A stretch of DNA of 64,000 nucleotides. Origin: Candidatus Vogelbacteria bacterium RIFOXYD1_FULL_44_32 (GTDB taxonomy: Bacteria > Patescibacteriota > Minisyncoccia > Phycocordibacterales > XYD1-FULL-46-19). Where the stretch lies: NCBI GenBank assembly GCA_001823065.1, contig MHTJ01000002.1, positions 53,532 through 117,531 of the forward strand. The letters are read 5' to 3'. The notes under the pieces are model-generated. The model did no database searches, had not been told where the DNA came from, and saw only the letters and a program-made list of their open reading frames with translations. Positions 1 through 50,624 of the stretch are shown here, one piece after another. A program made the translations under genes and the position numbers. The first letter of the stretch is position 1. The number at the start of each line of letters is the position of its first letter.

Positions 1-310
1 TATCATAGTTTGAAGTAAGGTATCTACCCTCTACACAAGGCATTACGCTATACGGCCCGTCTTCGCATATCTGTTTGTATAAATCCACCGCAGACTGTTC
101 AGCCTCATCAACACAAGCTGACTTTTTTAGTGTTACTAAGGTTTTTTTAAATTCTACATCATCTTCAACCCTCTTCCTTTCGTTTAACTCCATTCGCTGC
201 TCAACAACTTGGCTTAAAAAGTAAAATCCTCCGAGCATAAAACTTGCAATCAATATAACAGCAGGTAGAGATAGCTTATTTATATTATCAATGATGTTTT
301 TCATATTCAT
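1..310 (-). CDS. hypothetical membrane-anchored protein; N-terminus in window, C-terminus beyond the window edge
   Basis: Minus-strand ATG at 310 (MNMKNIIDNINKLSLPAVILIASFMLGGFYFL...); an open frame runs to position 1; one N-terminal TM helix. Not in the ORF track because it is truncated. Confidence 0.45.
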   Translation of the reverse strand, partial: MNMKNIIDNINKLSLPAVILIASFMLGGFYFLSQVVEQRMELNERKRVEDDVEFKKTLVTLKKSACVDEAEQSAVDLYKQICEDGPYSVMPCVEGRYLTSNYD

Positions 311-314
311 TTAA

Positions 315-647
315 CTACAAATTTTCACACGCCAGCCCGTCCCTATCCCTATCCAAATCGTGCGGGTCTAGTGCTGGCCCACCTTGTTTAATATAGAAAG
401 CCTGAGCCTCGGCTTGGGTTGAAAAATCGGCACAGTTTTTATCACTAGGAGTGGAAGTCCTGGCAGAGGTTCGAGACACAGTTTTAGCCTCTGTCTTGGC
501 TGTAGTAATTTTAGGGGTATGACAGTGGTACTCCCCTGTCTTACGGTTAGTATGGCAACCGTTCGAATCTGTCCGCCCTGGATGGGCTAAAACCACCCCT
601 GGAGCGGAGATAAGGATCAAACCGAGGATTAAGCTTATCTTTTTCAT
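315..647 (-). CDS. secreted YHYH-motif / Excalibur calcium-binding domain protein
   Basis: Signal peptide [21 protein letters not shown]; GYHCH (YHYH-like) motif; C-terminal DxDxDGxxCE Excalibur motif ([10 protein letters not shown]). Start moved to the internal Met of the 144-aa ORF. Confidence 0.6.
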
Positions 648-649
648 TA

Positions 650-880
650 TTAGGCCATTACCGTTAGGCCTACCACGAGGGCTATACCTATGATGACAGA
701 GGCTAAAATTATAGCCATTCCTAGGTTCCCTTTCTTTATCTCCTCCCACTCGTCTATAGGGGTAATTAGACTGAATATCTTAAGGGCTACACTTAAGGCT
801 ACAGCCATAGAAACGGCCCCGGTTAGGGCCCAGCCAAAGGTAATGAGGTATTGAGTGAAAATCATAGTTTTACCATACAA
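650..880 (-). CDS. DUF350-like small membrane protein
   Basis: 76 aa with two TM segments; [15 protein letters not shown] motif typical of DUF350. Confidence 0.5.
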
Positions 881-902
881 CTTTTATGGATAAAGTAAAG
901 GG

Positions 903-2225
903 TTATTTTACCCCACTTTTATCGGTTTGTTTTGGAGCAATAGCTAATTTAAGAAATTCCTTAACATCAAAAACTCCTATTGTATTAAACATACATTCTT
1001 TCAGTCCTTCCATCGATACTCCATTCATCTTTGCGTTTACCAACTCAAAGATATCAACAGCTGTCACAAGACAGATATCACAACTTCTAGCTTTTTTTAT
1101 TAGATTATCCTCAAAAGCCTTTGGTCTCTCGTTTGGTTTAGCGTCCTTATAGTGATTAATAATAAATATACCTTGGGTTAAATACGGCTCGGATGTTGGG
1201 GTATCTGGGATTCTTGCGATTAATTGATTTAAATCAGTTCCATTTAGTCCTTCCTTATTTTTTCCTCTAATTTCGATGATGATTCTAGATTTGCCTTCCT
1301 GATAATATCTGTCCTCCTCATTATCAACATCTGGAGACAATAAATTAATACCCAGTAATTTAAAGCAGTCAGATAATGACACTTCCAATGGTTTACCTTT
1401 TAGATACAGTACTTTTTTATACTCACAAATTAATGATAACTCAGATATTAGGAGTCCTTTTTCGACTTCTTTCCTATCTATTTCTACTTGTATATCCAAT
1501 ATCCCTTGCTTTTTACTGGCCTCACCAGGAAGTACAATTTCTTCAATCCATACAGGAGCTGGTTCTTTCTCAACCGAAAGTTCTGTTATTAACAATTCTA
1601 TACTATCTTCTGTATTGCCTAGCACAGGCAAGAAAAAAATTGGGCTGCCTTTAATCTTAGTACTTCTAGTACTCGTATCGCCCACGCTCCAAAGAAATCT
1701 AAATGCAATGGCTTTATTTATTTTATTTACAGCAAGCGCTTTGAAGTTAGGCTCAAACACGAGCGAACTATTTGGTGGGAAATGGTAGCAGTTGTTTATG
1801 CAATCTTTGTATAATCTATCCCACTTTTTAATTCTAGTCAGGAATTTTAAGTAATTTTCAGTCTTTGAGTGGTCAACTATGTTGCCTGGTAATTCTTCAA
1901 ACATCGGAATAATTGGGCACCAGCTATAGTTGAACGTGGTCTTACCCTGTGGTGACGAGTAAATAACTGGGCTCGCACAAAAAGAAAAAACTTGAAGTTT
2001 CCTTTTCTCTTGAGCCTCAATAATCATCTTCCTAATATCATCAAAGTAATTTGGATTTTCTATGGATATCTTTTCCATCAAGTCCCGTGTAAGAGAAGCG
2101 GTATCACATATGACGACATCAAAATCAGGCACATAAACAAAATCCCCCCAAGATACAGCTTTGTCCGCCCTGGGGTGATTTTCTGACCCGATAACTAAAA
2201 TACTTGCCCTGGAGTCCTCATTCAT
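903..2225 (-). CDS. hypothetical protein, 440 aa, no recognisable family; possible C-terminal PD-(D/E)xK-like nuclease motif
   Basis: Long clean ORF. C-terminal D..EGKSRIIIEIRG...LNQL segment is weakly reminiscent of a restriction-endonuclease fold. Preceded by a phased repeat array. Confidence 0.6.
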   Translation of the reverse strand: MNEDSRASILVIGSENHPRADKAVSWGDFVYVPDFDVVICDTASLTRDLMEKISIENPNYFDDIRKMIIEAQEKRKLQVFSFCASPVIYSSPQGKTTFNYSWCPIIPMFEELPGNIVDHSKTENYLKFLTRIKKWDRLYKDCINNCYHFPPNSSLVFEPNFKALAVNKINKAIAFRFLWSVGDTSTRSTKIKGSPIFFLPVLGNTEDSIELLITELSVEKEPAPVWIEEIVLPGEASKKQGILDIQVEIDRKEVEKGLLISELSLICEYKKVLYLKGKPLEVSLSDCFKLLGINLLSPDVDNEEDRYYQEGKSRIIIEIRGKNKEGLNGTDLNQLIARIPDTPTSEPYLTQGIFIINHYKDAKPNERPKAFEDNLIKKARSCDICLVTAVDIFELVNAKMNGVSMEGLKECMFNTIGVFDVKEFLKLAIAPKQTDKSGVK

Positions 2226-2414
2226 TTGATACCATAGTAATACTTGAATCTACAAAAGTACAAGGTGCCGAGTTATTAGGACAGCTGATACTAATTTTTT
2301 CTAAAATCTACTATCTTTCAACAGTAAATAACAGAGATTAACAACATTCAACACTGTTAGACTGGCTATCTAATACAAAATAGGTATGCAAGTTATATAA
2401 GTTGTATCACCCCA

Positions 2415-2462
2415 AATTACCTGTAATTACCTGTTTTTACCTGCCCACGACACGATACCTGC
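2415..2462. repeat. TTACCTG heptamer repeated 4x at ~10-bp phase
   Basis: Copies at 2418-2424, 2428-2434, 2438-2444 and 2456-2462 (aTACCTG). Confidence 0.6.
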
Positions 2463-2510
2463 AGAAATAATTTTTTATATTATGAAAGTTAAGAAAGTTA
2501 CATTCCTTAT

Positions 2511-2620
2511 TTTTAACTAATTTTAACCAGGATTAACCATTTTTAACCGCAATTGACCGAAACTAACCGACTTTTACTAATACTTACCAATTTCTACTAA
2601 CATCTACTAACATCCACCAC
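2511..2620. repeat. Eleven tandem degenerate 10-bp repeats (ttTTAACcaa / cTACTAA core), iteron-like
   Basis: ttttaactaa ttttaaccag gattaaccat ttttaaccgc aattgaccga aactaaccga cttttactaa tacttaccaa tttctactaa catctactaa catccaccac, with strict 10-bp periodicity. Confidence 0.7.
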
Positions 2621-2634
2621 TACTTCTGTACTTT

Positions 2635-2835
2635 TTATGATTTTAGCTGTTTCTCCTCGGTCAGACTCCAAATAAGCGCGACCACCCAACCGATGAATGT
2701 CCAACCAAGAAAAAGATTGAGCGCAAAAATAGCCCAAGCGTTATCTTTTTTATCGTAAAATGCCCCGATTGAGGGAGCAAAATATAGCCCAATGACCGCT
2801 ATCGCTATTAGTAAGGCAATAAATGTAGATTCCAT
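2635..2835 (-). CDS. phage T4 Imm-like superinfection immunity protein (Imm_superinfect family), small membrane protein
   Basis: 66 aa; PSIGAF...NLFLGWTFIGWVVALIWSL matches the Imm_superinfect signature (NxFLGWTGxGWxxALIWA). Confidence 0.55.
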   Translation of the reverse strand: MESTFIALLIAIAVIGLYFAPSIGAFYDKKDNAWAIFALNLFLGWTFIGWVVALIWSLTEEKQLKS

Positions 2836-2870
2836 AATGTATTAGATTAACTTATTAATTAACTTAAAAC

Positions 2871-3731
2871 TTAGTTATAACTATCAATCCTTCCATCATT
2901 ATTTTGGTCATAGAAGCAGGACGGCCCATAATCCATCCAGCAATACTGATACTGAGTTCCATAACCATAATTAGAGGGGTTTACTGCATCAGGTCTTCCT
3001 AAGCGGTACACCAGTATGTCGTAAGGCATACCAATCCAAATCTTTCCAGCCGCCAGAAGCTCGCACTCCTCTTTAGTCCACTCAGGGTGCGCCTTACAAG
3101 CACGACCAGCTGGACTACGGTTATAGGCTTCCAAGTCAGCCTTGGCTTTCGCTGTTTTAGCCGCTATTTCAGCCTTACGCTTACGTTCTGCCGCCTCCTC
3201 TGCCTTTTCCTTGTCTACTCGTTCTTCTGGCGTTAAAGTGCGATTTATGACCAACTCAGCTTTCCCCGTCTTATCCTCCCTGGCTGTCTCCAGAAACACT
3301 ATTGTCCTTTCCTTTTTAACTGGTAGTTCAAATTCAAAGTTACCCTTTTTATCGACCTCCACAGCTTTTTTAAGGTGGCTCAGGCTGGAGTCTTTCGGTC
3401 TAACATAGCCTTTAATTGTCACCAATGTTGAAGTCCCAACAGAAAACTCGTTTTCGGGTTCAGTAATTCTTATGGAAGGAGCTCGATGAGAGTAGGCATA
3501 TGAAGACATCGAGAGCATAAATATTCCAAGAATCACGGCTACCGTCTTCTTTTGTTTGAGGTTTATCCTGTCCTCGTATTTATACAAATAGAAAAGCATA
3601 GCCAGGGGTATTCCTAAATACCAATAGGCAATAACAAACGCTATAAAGAAAATCACCAATAACCCTCCCAGGGAAAACTTAGCCAATTTCACCACCCTAC
3701 CAATTAGAGATTTTATTTTGCTTGATTCCAT
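2871..3731 (-). CDS. membrane protein with Ig-like beta domain, coiled coil and Cys-containing C-terminal domain
   Basis: Two N-terminal TM helices; Lys/Glu/Ala-rich coiled coil; C-terminal GMPYDILVYRLGRPD...YQYCW. Confidence 0.55.
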   Translation of the reverse strand: MESSKIKSLIGRVVKLAKFSLGGLLVIFFIAFVIAYWYLGIPLAMLFYLYKYEDRINLKQKKTVAVILGIFMLSMSSYAYSHRAPSIRITEPENEFSVGTSTLVTIKGYVRPKDSSLSHLKKAVEVDKKGNFEFELPVKKERTIVFLETAREDKTGKAELVINRTLTPEERVDKEKAEEAAERKRKAEIAAKTAKAKADLEAYNRSPAGRACKAHPEWTKEECELLAAGKIWIGMPYDILVYRLGRPDAVNPSNYGYGTQYQYCWMDYGPSCFYDQNNDGRIDSYN

Positions 3732-3914
3732 AGCTGGAAATTAAGAACCAAAAAGCCCACCACAAGTGAGGCCAAATGGCCCTACCTAAGTTTCCCTAGG
3801 TAACGTTCCAGACGCCCTTGTGATGGGGTTTTTGTCTGGAACGCTTTGCGACCATACCGTAGAAAAGTAAATTTCTACGGGTTAGGTCTTAATAAATTGT
3901 TATCCTGATATTAA

Positions 3915-3946
3915 CAAAAAACCCCACCAGTGGCTACCCTGGTGAG
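3915..3946 (-). terminator. Rho-independent terminator downstream of the ImmA operon
   Basis: Minus-strand caccagg-gtagcca-ctggtg hairpin followed by a T-run. Confidence 0.5.
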
Positions 3947-3968
3947 ACAGAGGCAAACCCAAGCTATG

Positions 3969-4475
3969 TTATTTTTCTTTTTGGGATTTTTGATTGTTCT
4001 CAGGGAATAAGTGTTTTACAGCAATCAATAACATTATAGTTATCTGCGATATTGTTGCCGTTACTAGCAAACGGAAACTCCAGTCCTCAAGATAAAAGAA
4101 CTTCCCAGGCCTGTTTGTATCTACTCCTTGTAAAAAAGCGAGGATAAAAATGACGGTCGTTTCTATTCCTAAAAAAATAAACAGCCGATTCAGTGTGACC
4201 TTTTTTAAAGAAATATCCTGCTCTAAAGCATCATTGGCTAAGGATTTTGCCCTTTGTTCCTCCTTGTCTTCAATTTTTTCCGCTATCCTCTTTCTGGTTA
4301 CAAATGGGGTATTATATGACTGATTAAATATCCCTGGACGGCTGCCCTTCTGATGATTTAGGAGCCTCTTTTTTATTTCCTCCACCTCATTTTGTGCATC
4401 AGAGTATATCCTACTTGTTATACCTGGCTCTGAGTCGGGAACCACCTTTTTATCAGGAGGTGTCATACTAGTCAT
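3969..4475 (-). CDS. hypothetical membrane protein (soluble N-terminus, 2 C-terminal TM helices), co-operonic with ImmA
   Basis: Overlaps the ImmA gene by 8 bp; TM helices FIFLGIETTVIFILAFL and LLVTATISQITIMLLIAV. Confidence 0.55.
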   Translation of the reverse strand: MTSMTPPDKKVVPDSEPGITSRIYSDAQNEVEEIKKRLLNHQKGSRPGIFNQSYNTPFVTRKRIAEKIEDKEEQRAKSLANDALEQDISLKKVTLNRLFIFLGIETTVIFILAFLQGVDTNRPGKFFYLEDWSFRLLVTATISQITIMLLIAVKHLFPENNQKSQKEK

Positions 4476-5007
4476 TAGCTAAGCCAAGTTTCTCTAATCT
4501 AATTGCCATAGCAACAACGGAAACATTAAATATTTCTGCACATTCTTTAACATCTCCAACTTTACCCCAAGCGTCCCTGACCAAATCTTCTGGCATTATT
4601 AACGACGCCGCAAAATTATTAGCCTCAATTTCTAGCTTTGTCCCTATGGCGTCATCTAAACGAAAAAGGGTTCTACCTCCATCCAAAGTGCCTTCTCCGT
4701 CTATCATTATTTCTTCACTCTTAATAAATTCGGAATGCAGAAAAAGGTGGCCCAACTCGTGAGCTACAGTAAAATACTGCCTGGTTTTAGGTTTACTGCG
4801 GTTTATATAGATAGAAAAGGAGTCATTGTCTTTGTTATAGCTTATTGCCCCAGATATTTTATCTTCCAAGAGATTAGTGTAAATAATCTCCAAATCCTTT
4901 CTCCCTCTTTCTATATTTTCAAATGGAAAGGGGGAGACATTATCAGGATTATATAATTCCCTTTTTTCGTTAGCTTTTTTTATCGCTAAATTTACGTCTG
5001 CTTCCAT
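4468..5007 (-). CDS. ImmA/IrrE family zinc metallopeptidase (DUF955)
   Basis: HEXXH motif in TVAHELGHLFLH; the length and surrounding residues fit the ImmA/IrrE family. Confidence 0.75.
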   Translation of the reverse strand: MEADVNLAIKKANEKRELYNPDNVSPFPFENIERGRKDLEIIYTNLLEDKISGAISYNKDNDSFSIYINRSKPKTRQYFTVAHELGHLFLHSEFIKSEEIMIDGEGTLDGGRTLFRLDDAIGTKLEIEANNFAASLIMPEDLVRDAWGKVGDVKECAEIFNVSVVAMAIRLEKLGLAND

Positions 5008-36880: not shown

Positions 36881-36885
36881 GATTT

Positions 36886-36920
36886 AATCCCTCCGCCGGC
36901 TTCGCCGGCGGAGGGATTTT
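36886..36920 (+). terminator. Rho-independent terminator after cca
   Basis: aatccctccgccggc-ttcg-ccggcggagggatttt. Confidence 0.75.
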
Positions 36921-37236
36921 AGAAACAAACAACCCGCTCACTATAGGTTGGAGCGGGGGAGCGGTGTCGAATTTACGAGAAGCCGAGGGCTTCACTGGGC
37001 TCTGTCAAGAGAATAAATAGACAGGGCAATAATTTAAAAAATGAGGAGAACTAAACATAGAAGCTCTCCAAGCATTCGTAAAGGACACAAGCTAGAAAGG
37101 ACCTGATCATCGTCTGACACTATTGTACTATCGGACAAAATAAAGGACAAACATATTCCTGTGGATAAGTCCGCTCTCCCTCACTTTTTTAAGCGGGCCC
37201 CGCTACGTCGGTTAGAAATCATAGTCACCTCACAAC

Positions 37237-37277: not shown

Positions 37278-37400
37278 CTGCTTGGTTCCTTGATTTCCAA
37301 ACCAACTTTCGCAAAAGCTTAAAAAAGCGAGGGTTCGCTCAATATAGGGAAGCAAGGCTCGGCGAAAAACATTTTCTCGCTCTTATTAAATAATACTTCC

Positions 37401-46460: not shown

Positions 46461-46609
46461 ATTTGATTGACTTTTTTATAATTTATTGTAGTTTATCTGA
46501 GGATAAGCTGTTTCCGGCGGTGCCAGAAATGAAGTGTTTAAATTTGGTCTAAAACCAAGTTCAAACGGGGACTAACCCCCCATTTCAATACCGGAAAGGA
46601 GATAGGACA

Positions 46610-47257
46610 ATGACAAAACTCGAACGGACCCTGTTGAGAAAAGGGGTTCTGGTGTTGATGCAATGCTGGGAAGATAAAATAATGGCACCAGGATTTGTTT
46701 CCTGGGACATCAAGCAGGCAAGAAAACTCTTTGCTTGCACAATCTTCCAAGCGTCATGTTCCTGCTTGGGAATATTAGCGAGGGCACTTGAAAGCCCAAG
46801 GATGGCCGGATCCTGTGTCGTACTTATCATAATGTGCGCACTTTGGGTATATTTGACCACCAAAACATTTCACCAAGAATTTCCTGAGGCCGACTCTATA
46901 CGTAACATAAGAAAGGCCCATGGCTATTCCCAATTTTCTTCGGCTCTGACTTGGTTTCTGAAAGACAAGCAGTCCTTAGAGTTACAATTGGGTTTTAACA
47001 CTGGCACCCTCTCTGACAATTCACTCAACCTACTAAAAAGCGGCGCGACCGAGCGTATGGTGATTTTGGCTTATGCGGTCCTTGTCGCCCAAGACAAGAG
47101 TGGCGTCGGCAGCCCAGAAGCCCTAGGAAGAATGGATTTTCTCAGGGAATCACAAAAAATACTCCTGAGATTTAATCTCATCGGAGAAGACTGGACCCCG
47201 TACTTTGACACCGCCAAAGAAAGGTATGGGCGGGAAAAAAAGTCTGCCACAACATAA
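46610..47257 (+). CDS. hypothetical Cys-rich protein
   Basis: Good SD (ggaaaggaga, 7 nt upstream); 215 aa. Confidence 0.55.
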   Translation: MTKLERTLLRKGVLVLMQCWEDKIMAPGFVSWDIKQARKLFACTIFQASCSCLGILARALESPRMAGSCVVLIIMCALWVYLTTKTFHQEFPEADSIRNIRKAHGYSQFSSALTWFLKDKQSLELQLGFNTGTLSDNSLNLLKSGATERMVILAYAVLVAQDKSGVGSPEALGRMDFLRESQKILLRFNLIGEDWTPYFDTAKERYGREKKSATT

Positions 47258-47288
47258 GACCGAGTCTTAAATTCTTCTCAAGTTTTTT

Positions 47289-47328
47289 GCCCGCCCGCGG
47301 ACCACACGGTTCCGCGGGCGGTTTTTAT
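47289..47328 (+). terminator. Rho-independent terminator
   Basis: gcccgcccgcgga-ccacacggt-tccgcgggcgg followed by ttttt. Confidence 0.7.
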
Positions 47329-47636
47329 TTCCCAACCCAGCGAACCCTCCTTTTTTTTGATTGTTGTGAAAGAAGTGACCTGTTTCCGCAACCGAGCGAG
47401 CCTAGTTCTGTTCCAAAACCTTGCGGAGGTGTCGGCCCGCCCGCCATCGCAAGCTCAGGCGTTGCGGGCGGGCCGGCAGGGTTTTGGCCTTGGGTATTTA
47501 CTCCAGCAGGAGCTAGGAAATGTTTTTCGCCGAGCCTTGCGCAAGGGCGACGGCCCGAGCAGAGCAAATTTTCAGCAGAAAATTATGTGTGCTCGCCGAA
47601 AAACATTTCCGAGCGACCTTATCCACAGGTAGATTG

Positions 47637-47666
47637 TTGACTAGTGAACGCTTGTTCACCTATACT
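47637..47666 (+). promoter_or_regulatory. SOS promoter: TTGACT, 18-nt spacer containing a LexA box GAAC-GCTT-GTTC (47646-47657; full palindrome gtgaacgcttgttcac), TATACT
   Basis: Cheo-type GAAC-N4-GTTC operator embedded in the spacer of a sigma70-like promoter directly upstream of the lexA operon. Confidence 0.7.
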
Positions 47667-47709
47667 ATAAACAAGCCAAACGGCCCTTATAAAAATAATT
47701 TAAATAAAT

Positions 47710-47904
47710 ATGACCTACCAACAATACACCAAATCTATTCAACGCGAACTGTCAGACATTAACCAAATCATTGACCGTAAAATAATCCACGGGCTGTCTT
47801 ACCGCCGGGAATCGCTCCGGCACAAGCGCCTAATTAGCGAGCTACGCCGGCGCCGCTCGACCAGTGGCTGGCGGTCCCTAATGTCTTTCGTTTCACTCTT
47901 CTAA
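47710..47904 (+). CDS. small Arg-rich protein (64 aa), first gene of the putative SOS operon
   Basis: MTYQQYTKSIQRELSDINQIIDRKIIHGLSYRRESLRHKRLISELRRRRSTSGWRSLMSFVSLF; lies between the LexA box and lexA. Confidence 0.4.
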   Translation: MTYQQYTKSIQRELSDINQIIDRKIIHGLSYRRESLRHKRLISELRRRRSTSGWRSLMSFVSLF

Positions 47905-47936
47905 TAAATAGCCGAGAAAATGTTAAAATCTATCTA

Positions 47937-48503
47937 ATGGTAAACAACCACAAACAAAAATTAGTTTCGTTTTATGAAAGACATAAACGCATGCCAACCT
48001 ATACCGAGATGATGAAACTGTTTGGCTATCGTTCCAAAAATGCAGTTTTCAAATTGGTAGCCAAACTAGAAGAAGCGGGGATAGTAGCCAAGGACCACTT
48101 GGGTAGGTTGCTACCCACCAACAGTTTTAATGAAGTGCCACTACTGGGCCTAGTCAAAGCTGGCTTTCCTTCGATGGTCGAAGAAGAACAAAATGACACC
48201 ATGAGTCTAGATGACTTTCTAATCCAGAAAAAAGAATCGACTTATATTTTAGAAGTTGATGGCGACTCGATGATCGACGCTCATATTAAACCCGGAGACC
48301 TAGTAATAGCCGAGCGCACCGAACAAGCCAAAGACGGCCAGATAGTGATAGCCGAAGTGGACGGCGAATTTACCATGAAATATTTCCGCCAAACCGGAAA
48401 CAAAACTTGGTTGGAACCCGCCAACAAAAAATACAAACCAATCTACCCAGAAAATGATTTGAAGATAACCGCTATAGTCAAAGGCGTCATTAGAAAATAT
48501 TAA
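47937..48503 (+). CDS. lexA: LexA repressor
   Basis: N-terminal wHTH; S24 peptidase domain with GDSM and VAEVDGEFTMKYF motifs. Confidence 0.9.
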   Translation: MVNNHKQKLVSFYERHKRMPTYTEMMKLFGYRSKNAVFKLVAKLEEAGIVAKDHLGRLLPTNSFNEVPLLGLVKAGFPSMVEEEQNDTMSLDDFLIQKKESTYILEVDGDSMIDAHIKPGDLVIAERTEQAKDGQIVIAEVDGEFTMKYFRQTGNKTWLEPANKKYKPIYPENDLKITAIVKGVIRKY

Positions 48504-48515
48504 TCACTAAATCCC

Positions 48516-49793
48516 ATGCCAAACTCTTGGCCCCGCGCTATTGTCCATATCGACGGCGACTGCTTTTTTGTTGCCTGCGAGGTGGCAAAAAATCCCAAAC
48601 TAAAGGGCCGCCCAGTGGTGGTGGGCGCCGACCGGGGTATTGCTTGTGCGATGAGCTACGAGGCAAAAGCCCTCGGTGTTACACGAGGTATGCCGGTGGG
48701 TTGGATTAGGAAAATTTGTCCTAGCACAATTATCCTCCCCGAGGACCCTGCCAGCTACACCTTGTACTCTCGTCGAATGTACGAGATTGTGCGTCGTTAC
48801 ACACCAGAAGTAGAGGAATATAGTATCGACGAATGCTTTGCCGACATTACTGGTATGCACCGTGTTCTACATAAACCTTATATCGAAATTGCCAAAGAGA
48901 TTCAACAAACCCTAAAAAGCGAACTCGGTTTAGACTTTTCGGTCGGCCTGTCGGTAAACAAAGTCCTTGCCAAGATTGCCTCCAAGAAACGAAAGCCGAA
49001 TGGTTTTACGGTTATTGACTGGCCTAGTATTGGCGACTATTTAAAAACAACATCTATCCAAAACCTGTGGGGTGTGGGTGGCCAAACAGCCAGACAGTTG
49101 TACAAACTAGGAATAAAAACTGCTTCTGATTTTGCTACCACCGCGGGCACTGAGATAGCCAAAAACTTTTCCAAACCGTACCAGGAAATATGGCATGAAT
49201 TGCAGGGCAAATTTATTTTTCTATTAAATACCAAAAGTCAGCCCAACAAAACATCAATCTCAAAAACCAAAACCTTTGGCACCACCTCTAGCGACCAACA
49301 CTTTGTCTATTCGGCCTTGTCGGCCAATATTGAAGGGGCATGTTCCAAACTGAGAAAGTCTAAATTGTTGACCGATAAAGTATCTATTTTTTTGAAGACC
49401 CAGCAGTTTGAGTATTACCACTTAGATTTTGTCTTACCATGGCCGACGGCCAACCCTAAAGATATTTTGGATATCTGCCACCAAAGATTTGCAGAAGTTT
49501 TTTCTAAAGACAAAAAATACCGCGCTACCGGTGTGACTTTGTCTGGCTTAAAACCAGCAAACACCGAAACCCTAAACCTGTTTGGCGAAGCCATAAGAAA
49601 AGAAAACAATAAAATTATTTATCACCATATTGACCTGTTAGACCATCGCTTTGGGGCCAATACTATTTTTCTTGCTTCATCTTTGTCGGCACTAAAATAT
49701 CAAAAAATAAAAGATGAGGGTTCATCTTCAAAAATATTTTCACTAAACAAAAAGAGGCACTTAGGCCTCTTGTCGTTGGGTAAGGTTACCTAA
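48516..49793 (+). CDS. dinB: Y-family DNA polymerase IV
   Basis: IVHIDGDCFFVACE catalytic motif; 425 aa. Confidence 0.9.
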   Translation: MPNSWPRAIVHIDGDCFFVACEVAKNPKLKGRPVVVGADRGIACAMSYEAKALGVTRGMPVGWIRKICPSTIILPEDPASYTLYSRRMYEIVRRYTPEVEEYSIDECFADITGMHRVLHKPYIEIAKEIQQTLKSELGLDFSVGLSVNKVLAKIASKKRKPNGFTVIDWPSIGDYLKTTSIQNLWGVGGQTARQLYKLGIKTASDFATTAGTEIAKNFSKPYQEIWHELQGKFIFLLNTKSQPNKTSISKTKTFGTTSSDQHFVYSALSANIEGACSKLRKSKLLTDKVSIFLKTQQFEYYHLDFVLPWPTANPKDILDICHQRFAEVFSKDKKYRATGVTLSGLKPANTETLNLFGEAIRKENNKIIYHHIDLLDHRFGANTIFLASSLSALKYQKIKDEGSSSKIFSLNKKRHLGLLSLGKVT

Positions 49794-49800
49794 AATTTAA

Positions 49801-50541
49801 TCACGCCCGAACTGGCACTTCTTTAATCAAATCCACCACCATCTGTTCATCATCAAACAGGTGATAGAGATCGGTATCCTCGGCATCAATCGTGTGGAAG
49901 CGACTGCGTAGCTCGGTATCAATCCAAGTGGTAAGTGGTTTCCAAAAATCGATACCAACTAAAATAATCGGTACCCACGGAATTTTTTTCGTCTGAACCA
50001 AAGTTAATATTTCAAACAATTCATCGAGCGTCCCAAACCCACCCGGAAAATAAACAAAAGCCTCCGACGAATAAGTCATGCAAACTTTACGGGTAAAGAA
50101 ATAATAAAAATCCTCGTGAGCGGTAACATAGGGGTTGGTCGATTGCTCCATTGGTAACTCAATCGTGAGACCAAGTGAATCGCCTCCGGCTTCCTTAGCG
50201 CCCCGATTGCCGGCCTCCATAATCCCCGGACCACCACCAGTAATAATCGCGTAACCTTCCTTAGCGAGCAGATTACCAAGGCGCCGAGCTTGCTCATAAT
50301 GCGGGTCAGTTTCCGGCAAGCGGGCCGAACCAAAAAAAGTTACTGATTTGGGATAAGATTTTACAAAATTAAAACCATCACTAAATTCTTTTTGAATAAC
50401 ACTAATCCTATGTTTAATATCCTGGTCAACATCATCGACAGTCAGGGTGTCAATCGGTAAATCTTTAGCTGGCAAGTTAATAATCTTTTTCTGGACCAAT
50501 TTGTCATCTATTTTTGCCGACTGACCGAAAAAATTAAACAT
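49801..50541 (-). CDS. LOG family protein (TIGR00730, cytokinin riboside 5'-monophosphate phosphoribohydrolase-like)
   Basis: VTFFGSAR...GGGPGIMEAGNRGA...PGGFGTLDELFE motifs. Start chosen at MFNFFGQ because a TATAAT box lies inside the longer ORF extension. Confidence 0.75.
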   Translation of the reverse strand: MFNFFGQSAKIDDKLVQKKIINLPAKDLPIDTLTVDDVDQDIKHRISVIQKEFSDGFNFVKSYPKSVTFFGSARLPETDPHYEQARRLGNLLAKEGYAIITGGGPGIMEAGNRGAKEAGGDSLGLTIELPMEQSTNPYVTAHEDFYYFFTRKVCMTYSSEAFVYFPGGFGTLDELFEILTLVQTKKIPWVPIILVGIDFWKPLTTWIDTELRSRFHTIDAEDTDLYHLFDDEQMVVDLIKEVPVRA

Positions 50542-50624
50542 AAAATTTTTGATTATAATTAAGTGTTTATATTTTAGCATAAAAGAAGCTGGGGCATTAT
50601 CCAGCCTTAAACACAAACAAACCA

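Follow-up and report, generated by a model that had tools for sequence, protein, structure and literature searches.

The subject of this analysis is a predicted operon in a window of 64,000 nucleotides (nt), by which we mean the whole stretch of DNA that was analysed, from Candidatus Vogelbacteria bacterium RIFOXYD1_FULL_44_32 (assembly GCA_001823065.1, contig MHTJ01000002.1, positions 53,532 to 117,531 of the forward strand). Behind a single sigma-70-like promoter the window carries a small open reading frame (ORF) encoding 64 amino acids, a lexA gene and a gene for a Y-family DNA polymerase. The best explanation of this arrangement appears to be an autoregulated lexA operon of a Paceibacteria-type Patescibacteria genome. 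As far as operon, operator and conserved small gene are concerned, we regard this reading of the sequence as at least very highly probable. The whole explanation, which also assigns a role to the small protein, has in our estimate a probability of roughly 0.5. According to it a LexA dimer sitting on a palindrome in the promoter spacer would block RNA polymerase, and DNA damage would lead by RecA-stimulated self-cleavage of LexA to derepression of the small protein, LexA and the polymerase, while DnaA bound at about -50 would add an input of replication status. The small protein would act as an effector of a DNA-damage or replication-stress checkpoint. It would be attached peripherally to the membrane via a basic linker and a Phe-rich amphipathic C-terminal helix with a MinD-like FF-x-R-LF core, and its conserved helical hairpin would bind a component of the divisome and delay cell division. 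Two elements of this system appear to be new: an unannotated family of small proteins with an obligate link to lexA throughout Patescibacteria and a conserved DnaA box at the promoter of the small ORF and lexA.

A sequence-only reading of this stretch had described an SOS operon with a LexA box inside a sigma70-like promoter, and promoter, box, ORFs and comparison with relatives all bear this out. TTGACT and TATACT form the top sigma-70-like match between 47200 and 50000 (10 of 12 positions). They are separated by a spacer of 18 nt that holds the 16-mer GTGAACGCTTGTTCAC, whose core GAACGCTTGTTC at 47646-47657 is the GAAC-N4-GTTC palindrome, present between the two hexamers exactly as that reading had placed it. 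Within the window alone the LexA box by itself is not significant: GAAC-N4-GTTC occurs three times against 0.97 expected, 6 of 100 shuffles reach three occurrences, and each of the other two lies within a tRNA gene or next to one. The extended 16-mer has no other good match in the window. Despite these weak window statistics the box is real, because it is conserved across 80 orthologous loci. These loci come from a scan of Patescibacteria with one genome per species, their LexA proteins showing 66-95% identity. Exactly one perfect GAAC-N4-GTTC is located 240-400 bp 5' of lexA in 78 of them; of the remaining two, one has its box at -514 and the other a box with a single mismatch. Overall the core is perfect in 79 of the 80 loci, and all 80 boxes lie in the -35/-10 spacer 5' of the small ORF. 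When 78 promoters were aligned on the LexA box, we obtained the consensus TTGACA-GTGAACG-NN-CGTTCAC-t-TATACT, in which the 16-bp palindrome occupies the whole spacer and the N positions vary freely. The flanking sequence of the related loci (~600 kb) contains only 8 further core matches, which is about chance level.

We also scanned metagenomes with the pattern GTGAAC-N4-GTTCAC-N-TATAAT; the 120 loci returned (L091-L210) were sorted by the first gene behind the promoter. That other SOS genes carry the box as well could be confirmed for dinB, which has its own box in 10 of these metagenome loci and in one of the related loci, L021, where full 16-mers from among the 8 further matches are located, in the same box-in-spacer geometry, directly 5' of dinB and of a gene for a secreted protein. 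A recA gene was not encountered in the window or any of the 210 collected loci. Together these comparisons support a Gram-positive-type LexA operator, predicted inside the sigma-70-like promoter of an SOS-type operon. The features of the operon are listed in Table 1.

Table 1. Predicted features of the lexA operon (positions count from the first nucleotide of the window).
Feature	Position	Strand	Remarks
DnaA box, perfect 9-mer TTATCCACA	47619-47627	+	9 nt 5' of the -35 hexamer; about -54 to -46 from the inferred transcription start
-35 hexamer TTGACT	47637-47642	+	consensus in relatives TTGACA
LexA operator (predicted), 16-bp palindrome GTGAACGCTTGTTCAC	47644-47659		fills the -35/-10 spacer; position conserved in 80 of 80 related loci
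-10 hexamer TATACT	47661-47666	+	nearly invariant among the 78 aligned promoters
Small ORF, 64 amino acids	47710-47904	+	unannotated Patescibacteria family; helical hairpin, basic linker, Phe-rich amphipathic C-terminus
lexA, 188 amino acids	47937-48503	+	probable N-terminal winged-helix DNA-binding domain and S24 autopeptidase domain; TIGR00498
Y-family translesion DNA polymerase, DinB/Pol IV-like, 425 amino acids	48516-49793	+	lineage-specific third gene

All three ORFs are present in the order that had been described, a basic protein of 64 amino acids followed by LexA and the polymerase on one strand. The gaps, given before as 33 and 13 bp, measure 32 nt between the small ORF and lexA and 12 nt between lexA and the polymerase gene, a trivial off-by-one. 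A homologue of the small protein with 62-84 amino acids is encoded between the box and lexA in all 80 related loci. Common to the homologues is the pattern M-S/T-x-x-Q-Y...E-I/L..L/I-N..I-D.K-I..G..Y..E-A..H-K.L-L, after which come a basic stretch and an aromatic tail. Over the 43 conserved codons we computed a median ratio of nonsynonymous to synonymous substitution rates (dN/dS) of 0.14. The third codon position is the most variable, with a column entropy of 1.44 compared to 0.55 at the second position. Judged by this pattern of substitutions, the small ORF evolves as a real coding gene, and both its frame and its synteny are conserved, as its treatment as a gene in the sequence-only reading presupposed.

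An exhaustive HMMER search over 1.84 billion representatives (E<=1e-3) yielded 141 matches, one of which is a spurious repeat protein, while all others have a length of 33-147 amino acids. In the longer members we recognised mis-called N-terminal extensions, "ERSFTYT", which are the translated LexA box plus the -10 hexamer. The family thus comprises ~140 clusters at 50% identity that are spread across Patescibacteria and always located beside lexA, so that the earlier description of the small gene as unique to this lineage was wrong. Word-indexed protein searches returned only the protein itself when a single sequence was used and 27 "hypothetical" proteins with a profile. No family match for the window protein was found in Pfam, NCBIfam or PHROGs, and every source names it "hypothetical protein". 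Likewise, 97 family members compared with Pfam and three other members compared with PADLOC and PHROGs gave nothing consistent, and a profile search of the PDB sequences gave no relative.

The linkage to lexA extends beyond the related loci. In the metagenome scan lexA is the next gene in 29 of 29 small-ORF loci with enough downstream sequence, and a contig look-up of the distant family members P0004 and P0142, which have the box 5' of them too, revealed an S24 LexA of 189 amino acids immediately 3'. The family was never found away from lexA, nor fused to another domain. In 52 of 78 loci, moreover, the stop codon of the small ORF overlaps lexA or is no more than 10 nt away from the lexA start. 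A linkage this absolute (80 of 80 genome loci, 29 of 29 metagenome loci and both distant members) together with frequent translational coupling would favour a modulator of the SOS switch itself, that is a protein which binds LexA or RecA and tunes operator binding or self-cleavage. Such proteins are known: gp7 of phage GIL01 is a co-repressor of LexA, and DinI and RecX bind RecA. The invariant polar residues N18, D22 and H38 on the predicted hairpin, which suggest a specific protein interface, would also suit this role. However, many related lexA genes, whose products are of the same type and have 188-193 amino acids, are located directly behind the same box without a small ORF (e.g. L127, L136, L164, L200), and LexA therefore does not need the small protein. 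Furthermore, the basic linker and the Phe-rich amphipathic tail would have no obvious use in the cytoplasm, and neither its fold nor its sequence makes the protein resemble gp7, DinI or RecX. Taking both sides together we consider a modulator unlikely and prefer a membrane-associated checkpoint effector, to which we return below.

The identity of LexA in the autoregulated operon that we favour, which had already been recognised from the letters, is sound. Against TIGR00498 the protein scores 131.1 bits (cut-off 110.95) with residues 11-187 covered, and Peptidase_S24 matches with 1e-28. Residues 11-187 and 19-186 can be aligned with the LexA structures of Thermotoga and E. coli, respectively. 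The cleavage and catalytic motifs are in register with E. coli LexA (VKAGFP with VAAGEP, GDSM with GMSM and FTMKYF with VTVKRL) and align with its A84-G85, S119 and K156. Since the Ala-Gly site and the Ser/Lys dyad are present, self-cleavage is plausible. The Pfam model LexA_DNA_bind gives 13.6 bits against a cut-off of 23.7, and residues 11-66 align with the DNA-binding domains of Thermotoga and E. coli.

The product of the third gene contains the domains IMS (1.4e-46) and IMS_C (5.9e-17), and its top solved relatives are all Pol IV. Among the NCBIfam models those for Pol IV score best, with 222 bits against a curated cut-off of 256, and the UmuC model reaches 161.6 against 431, so that all remain below the curated cut-offs. 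As no curated Pol IV cut-off is passed, we use the label DinB-like Y-family polymerase: of the previous assignment to DNA polymerase IV the Y-family and DinB-like part stands on domains and structures, whereas the exact subfamily does not reach any NCBIfam Pol IV cut-off. We also considered umuDC, which combines an S24 protein with a Y-family polymerase. This was rejected, since the S24 protein probably carries a DNA-binding domain of the LexA type and exceeds the LexA cut-off, and since Pol IV models fit the polymerase better than the UmuC model does.

The polymerase gene adjoins lexA in only 5 of 72 loci with room for it and is absent from a close relative with 84% LexA identity (L007); it is a lineage-specific addition outside the conserved unit. 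Genes 3' of lexA are diverse in the relatives and include a convergent HU gene, a Pif1-like helicase, EngB, methyltransferases and others. Given this diversity and the rarity of the polymerase, the conserved unit consists of the promoter, the small ORF and lexA. Several metagenome contigs carry the same operon as the window.

To the elements described earlier the comparison adds a DnaA box. In the promoter alignment a conserved element, gTTATCCACAg, surfaced just 5' of the -35 hexamer; in the window it is represented by TTATCCACA, which agrees with the near-universal DnaA consensus at 9 of 9 positions, a consensus from which that of this lineage may differ. No dnaA or oriC locus was found among the 210 collected loci. 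In 73 of the 80 related loci the box is a perfect match close to the promoter and identically oriented, and most of the others have variants with one mismatch. It ends 9-27 nt before the LexA box, the distance being 15-18 nt in 65 of the 73 loci. Altogether the 80 loci hold 82 perfect DnaA boxes compared to ~4.6 expected, and 73 of the 82 are found at the promoter position. Among the metagenome loci a perfect DnaA box is present at 32 of 37 promoters with the small ORF as first gene (3 more have 8 of 9 positions), in contrast to 1 of 50 promoters with lexA and 0 of 10 with dinB as first gene. The DnaA box therefore tracks the promoter of the small ORF and lexA and not LexA boxes generally. From the match to the consensus and this selective conservation it seems fairly probable that DnaA binds here and provides a functional input at the promoter of the lexA operon. 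The uvrB gene of E. coli offers a precedent for joint control by LexA and DnaA (PMC6015884).

It could be argued that TTATCCACA belongs to another regulator or is a passively inherited piece of a promoter cassette, which would leave LexA as the sole regulator. There is a single box per promoter, whereas promoters regulated by DnaA often have several. The spacing between box and -35 hexamer varies from ~1 to 12 nt, and near-identical segments from the DnaA box to the -35 hexamer occur at unrelated restriction-modification genes (e.g. L140 compared to the small-ORF locus L111). We nevertheless find this doubtful. The 9-mer is perfect in 73 of 80 loci while its flanks and the N4 of the LexA box vary freely, which points to purifying selection on exactly the DnaA 9-mer. 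Moreover, the second perfect DnaA box of the window is also located 8 nt 5' of a -35-like hexamer and in the same orientation.

If DnaA does act at this promoter, the small protein itself might regulate the initiation of replication by targeting DnaA or DnaN, with the DnaA box providing feedback so that damage and DnaA status jointly block new rounds. The association of the box with the small ORF (32 of 37 promoters, compared to 0 of 10 for dinB and 1 of 50 for lexA alone) and its fixed geometry 5' of the -35 hexamer would agree with this, and DnaA itself is known to associate with membranes. However, phylogeny may confound the comparison, as most lexA-only promoters are from other lineages. 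A promoter with DnaA box and LexA box also drives restriction-modification genes in four metagenome loci, so that the DnaA box is not exclusive to the small ORF and may travel in a promoter cassette. Since there is furthermore no similarity to SirA, YabA, Hda or DiaA, we think it quite improbable that the small protein regulates initiation, and a checkpoint effector that acts on cell division remains our preferred reading.

An origin of replication was considered as another reason for a DnaA box at this position and rejected: the 64-kb window contains only two perfect DnaA boxes, and no switch in GC skew was found near 47 kb. The other perfect DnaA box of the window, cTTATCCACAGg at 37160-37168 on the minus strand, is located 8 nt 5' of a possible promoter (TTGTCC-17 nt-TACAAT) without a LexA box. 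Behind it follow ~230 nt without an ORF (36885-37130) that end in a strong hairpin, CCCTCCGCCGGC-gaa-GCCGGCGGAGGG. Rfam gave nothing at the gathering threshold for this region, which could encode a DnaA-controlled small RNA or antisense transcript.

Promoters of the same build were also noticed in other gene contexts. In the four metagenome loci mentioned above (L140 at 1497, L195 at 4594, L197 at 437 and L206 at 704, the latter two on the minus strand), a near-identical promoter with DnaA box and LexA box precedes methyltransferase genes. Each methyltransferase gene is followed by a probable restriction enzyme gene, and there is no lexA or small ORF in these loci. The spacer between DnaA box and -35 hexamer in L140 is identical to that of L111. 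Perhaps these restriction-modification systems are controlled by SOS/DnaA, or perhaps they have captured the promoter. In L021 three promoters with a box in the spacer lie within 4 kb (positions 1-4600), namely those of a secreted protein of 369 amino acids, of dinB and of the small ORF with lexA; a DnaA box with one mismatch, TTTTCCACA, is located 5' of the -35 hexamer of the secreted-protein promoter. Furthermore, ~50 metagenome loci carry a different LexA of ~197 amino acids directly behind the same box without a small ORF. Apart from two (one perfect box and one with 8 of 9 positions) these loci have no DnaA box. Their ATG is located 6 nt past the -10 hexamer, which implies leaderless mRNAs, and by the same spacing many promoters with dinB as first gene are leaderless as well.

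Turning to the small protein itself, the window copy has a net charge of +9 and a hydrophobic C-terminus. AlphaFold2, run on an alignment of 97 sequences, predicts two helices (residues 3-27 and 32-49, both with a predicted local distance difference test (pLDDT) score above 90) and a third helix of lower confidence (54-61), the mean pLDDT being 85. Residues N18, I21, D22 and H38 are invariant in the family, and I25, G28, Y31 and L41 nearly so. With the model as query, Foldseek found nothing in the PDB at E<=0.001, and fold searches returned generic helical hairpins only. The tails consist to 22% of Phe and to 1.5% of Asp and Glu, and the linker that precedes them has a mean net charge of +3.2. 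Their helical hydrophobic moment is 0.376, compared to 0.273 in shuffled tails. In 100 of 225 tails, as against 19.7 +/- 4.2 in shuffled ones, there is a core with a basic residue between two hydrophobic pairs, such as FFGRLF or WFGRSM.

The hydrophobic tail noted in the sequence-only reading thus exists, but it is not a transmembrane segment. Using Kyte-Doolittle means over 19-residue windows, for which ~1.6 is expected of a membrane span, we found a maximum of 1.27 among 189 family members and of -0.12 in the window copy. As none of the 189 members reaches transmembrane hydrophobicity, a transmembrane tail anchor was rejected. The same result bears on the question whether the small protein could be an SOS-induced peptide of the TisB, DinQ or Hok type that damages the membrane, lowers the membrane potential and promotes dormancy. 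It is small, basic, under putative LexA control and ends in an aromatic and hydrophobic C-terminus, all of which would fit. Such a toxin is nevertheless very improbable: apart from the missing membrane-spanning hydrophobicity, ~50 of the ~65 residues form a conserved soluble hairpin, co-transcription with lexA implies basal expression, and no antisense or antitoxin feature is evident. PADLOC reported a "HicA-like" match (E=2e-4) for the window copy only and not for three other members. The HicA toxin was rejected on this account and because the predicted fold is all-helical, while HicA has an alpha/beta fold resembling the double-stranded RNA-binding domain.

The role that we favour for the small protein is instead that of a membrane-associated checkpoint effector, most likely a division inhibitor, although by analogy to other systems we can put this forward only tentatively. 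Expression of the small protein under LexA control is inferred from the operator in a promoter of which the small ORF is the first gene. In monoderm bacteria the SOS division inhibitors are small, lineage-specific, membrane-associated and typically encoded beside lexA, and in P. aeruginosa lexA is co-transcribed with sulA. These lexA-adjacent inhibitors of monoderms with the same box, the lexA-sulA arrangement in Pseudomonas, the tail resembling a targeting helix and the conserved hairpin are our reasons for this reading. The likeness to SulA or YneA suggested by the sequence-only reading holds as an analogy only, as there is no homology to any known inhibitor: neither the window protein nor 97 family members matched the SulA domain at E<=1, and no LysM domain was matched by the window protein or family members.

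Several observations weigh against this role or against the explanation as a whole. The family is without a relative in Pfam, NCBIfam, PHROGs or the PDB, and its helical hairpin is of a generic type. With 35% of the tails exceeding the shuffled mean by more than one standard deviation, their amphipathicity is no more than moderate. Co-transcription with lexA, often with translational coupling, would mean that the protein is made at basal LexA levels, which is awkward for a division inhibitor and would fit a partner of LexA better. The link to the DnaA box suggests a role in replication as readily as one in division. Finally, there is a comparative study devoted to the SOS network in Patescibacteria by Sanchez-Osuna, Barbe and Erill (2017, Environ Microbiol 19:3465), which one citing paper lists among cases of direct-repeat LexA motifs; the papers that cite it contain no details for this lineage. 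A broader proposal would be that the protein represents an unrecognised class of checkpoint factor specific to Patescibacteria, also known as the candidate phyla radiation (CPR). Here a promoter integrating LexA and DnaA would control either a membrane-tethered hairpin that halts division or initiation, or a LexA co-regulator similar to gp7, and the promoter cassette would be a module for reuse, which restriction-modification systems would have captured as well. This we regard as speculative and rather unlikely.

The surroundings of the operon were inspected for further elements. A convergent LOG-family gene (49801-50616, minus strand) closes the unit, and no terminator-like site was found on the plus strand between the three genes. 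The polymerase gene contains a hairpin within its 3' end, AAGAGGCACTTAGGCCTCTT at 49752-49771. As a T-run follows on the minus strand, this hairpin looks like the terminator of the convergent LOG-family gene; on the plus strand there is no T-run after it, and a terminator of the operon itself is therefore not evident. Shine-Dalgarno-like motifs are rare (3 of 78 loci), and at several promoters the ATG is located 6 nt past the -10 hexamer, which implies leaderless mRNAs. Upstream of the unit comM is found in 40 of 80 loci.

In the window comM and the promoter are separated by 1.18 kb (46461-47636). This stretch contains only an unconserved ORF of 215 amino acids, for which there was no Pfam match and no tblastn match in related loci, and GC-rich hairpins at 47291-47321 and 47430-47478. 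A 24-nt inverted repeat is formed by 47512-47535 and 47591-47614, and its arm recurs at 37352-37382. Breaks in the metagenome contigs L002-L004 fall at ~47523 and ~47586, and most relatives have the end of comM directly at the promoter. The stretch thus looks like variable or inserted DNA. A non-coding RNA in this 1.2-kb gap was rejected as Rfam gave nothing credible. Elsewhere in the window, at 3769-3888 on the minus strand, a match to LOOT RNA (RF03000) was found that has no relation to the operon; it scores 71.8 bits, the gathering score being 46.4. In the locus of a distant family member (L088, 2592-4022) lexA is followed by a gene whose product combines an RNase_T exonuclease with GIY-YIG, UvrC_M and Cho_C domains, a Cho-like nuclease that apparently belongs to the same operon.

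Patescibacteria account for a very large share of bacterial diversity and have tiny genomes. To our knowledge almost nothing about their control of cell cycle and stress has been tested experimentally. LexA, Cheo-type operators, autoregulation and an SOS-controlled Y-family polymerase are textbook knowledge, and the SOS operator, LexA and the Y-family polymerase are in themselves ordinary. The small protein, however, is very likely an important part of the DNA-damage response in Patescibacteria, because it is kept in reduced genomes, always beside lexA and under strong purifying selection. It is short and amenable to testing in a heterologous host. The DnaA box beside the LexA operator suggests that the master SOS operon of this radiation also listens to the replication initiator. 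If this is true, the promoter would be an unusually clean natural example of combined control by LexA and DnaA.

Among the known systems the closest parallels for the operator are found in Gram-positive bacteria. The Cheo box, the operator of Gram-positive LexA (DinR) with the consensus CGAACRNRYGTTYC, has the same GAAC-N4-GTTC core, overlaps promoters and serves in lexA autoregulation. In Patescibacteria the flanks are GT...AC (GTGAACG-NN-CGTTCAC) instead of CGAAC...GTTCG, and the box exactly fills a spacer of 17-18 nt. With regard to the polymerase, the operon resembles lexA1-dinB1 of Geobacter sulfurreducens, in which LexA controls the joint transcription of lexA and a gene for a Pol IV-type polymerase. 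In contrast to Geobacter, the pairing of lexA and polymerase is a minority arrangement here (5 of 72 loci), and dinB of other relatives has its own boxed and often leaderless promoter.

Concerning the combination of LexA and DnaA sites, the uvrB gene of E. coli likewise has an SOS promoter with LexA operator(s) and a consensus DnaA box, but it has three promoters and several boxes (PMC6015884). In contrast to uvrB, the window promoter combines a single DnaA box at about -50 with a single operator in the spacer. It is moreover the promoter of the lexA operon itself, and its arrangement has been conserved throughout a large radiation. B. subtilis Sda, a checkpoint protein of ~46 amino acids that also forms a helical hairpin, has a promoter that is controlled via DnaA boxes under replication stress. 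The target of inhibition by Sda is the sporulation kinase KinA; Sda lacks a membrane tail and is not regulated by LexA, and there is no sequence similarity between Sda and the small protein.

For the small protein itself, the known lexA-adjacent division inhibitors are YneA of B. subtilis, SosA of S. aureus, DivS of C. glutamicum and ChiZ (Rv2719c) of M. tuberculosis. In common with these it is small, lineage-specific, without an enzymatic domain, encoded beside lexA with a box of the GAAC-N4-GTTC type and, by prediction, membrane-associated. The four inhibitors, however, are encoded divergently from lexA and possess an N-terminal transmembrane helix and an extracytoplasmic part (with LysM in YneA and ChiZ). 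In contrast, the small ORF is the first cistron of the lexA operon, and its product is predicted to be a cytoplasmic hairpin without a transmembrane helix and shows no sequence similarity to this group. With lexA-sulA of Pseudomonas it shares the co-transcription of lexA and a (here putative) effector from a LexA-repressed promoter. SulA has ~160 amino acids, a RecA-like fold, binds FtsZ and is encoded 3' of lexA, whereas the small ORF encodes 64 amino acids without a match to SulA and is located 5' of lexA. The type I toxins TisB and DinQ are short, mostly hydrophobic peptides that span the membrane, a description which does not fit the small protein with its family maximum of 1.27 on the Kyte-Doolittle scale and its soluble hairpin. 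The tails, finally, recall the targeting helices of MinD (KKGFLKRLFGG) and FtsA, as a hydrophobic pair, a basic residue and another hydrophobic pair follow basic residues in tails such as RKGFFGRLFAR and GFLGRLFSF. The tails of the small proteins exceed these helices in length and, by far, in their content of Phe and Ser, and F-x-F is a frequent ending, so that we speak of a resemblance only.

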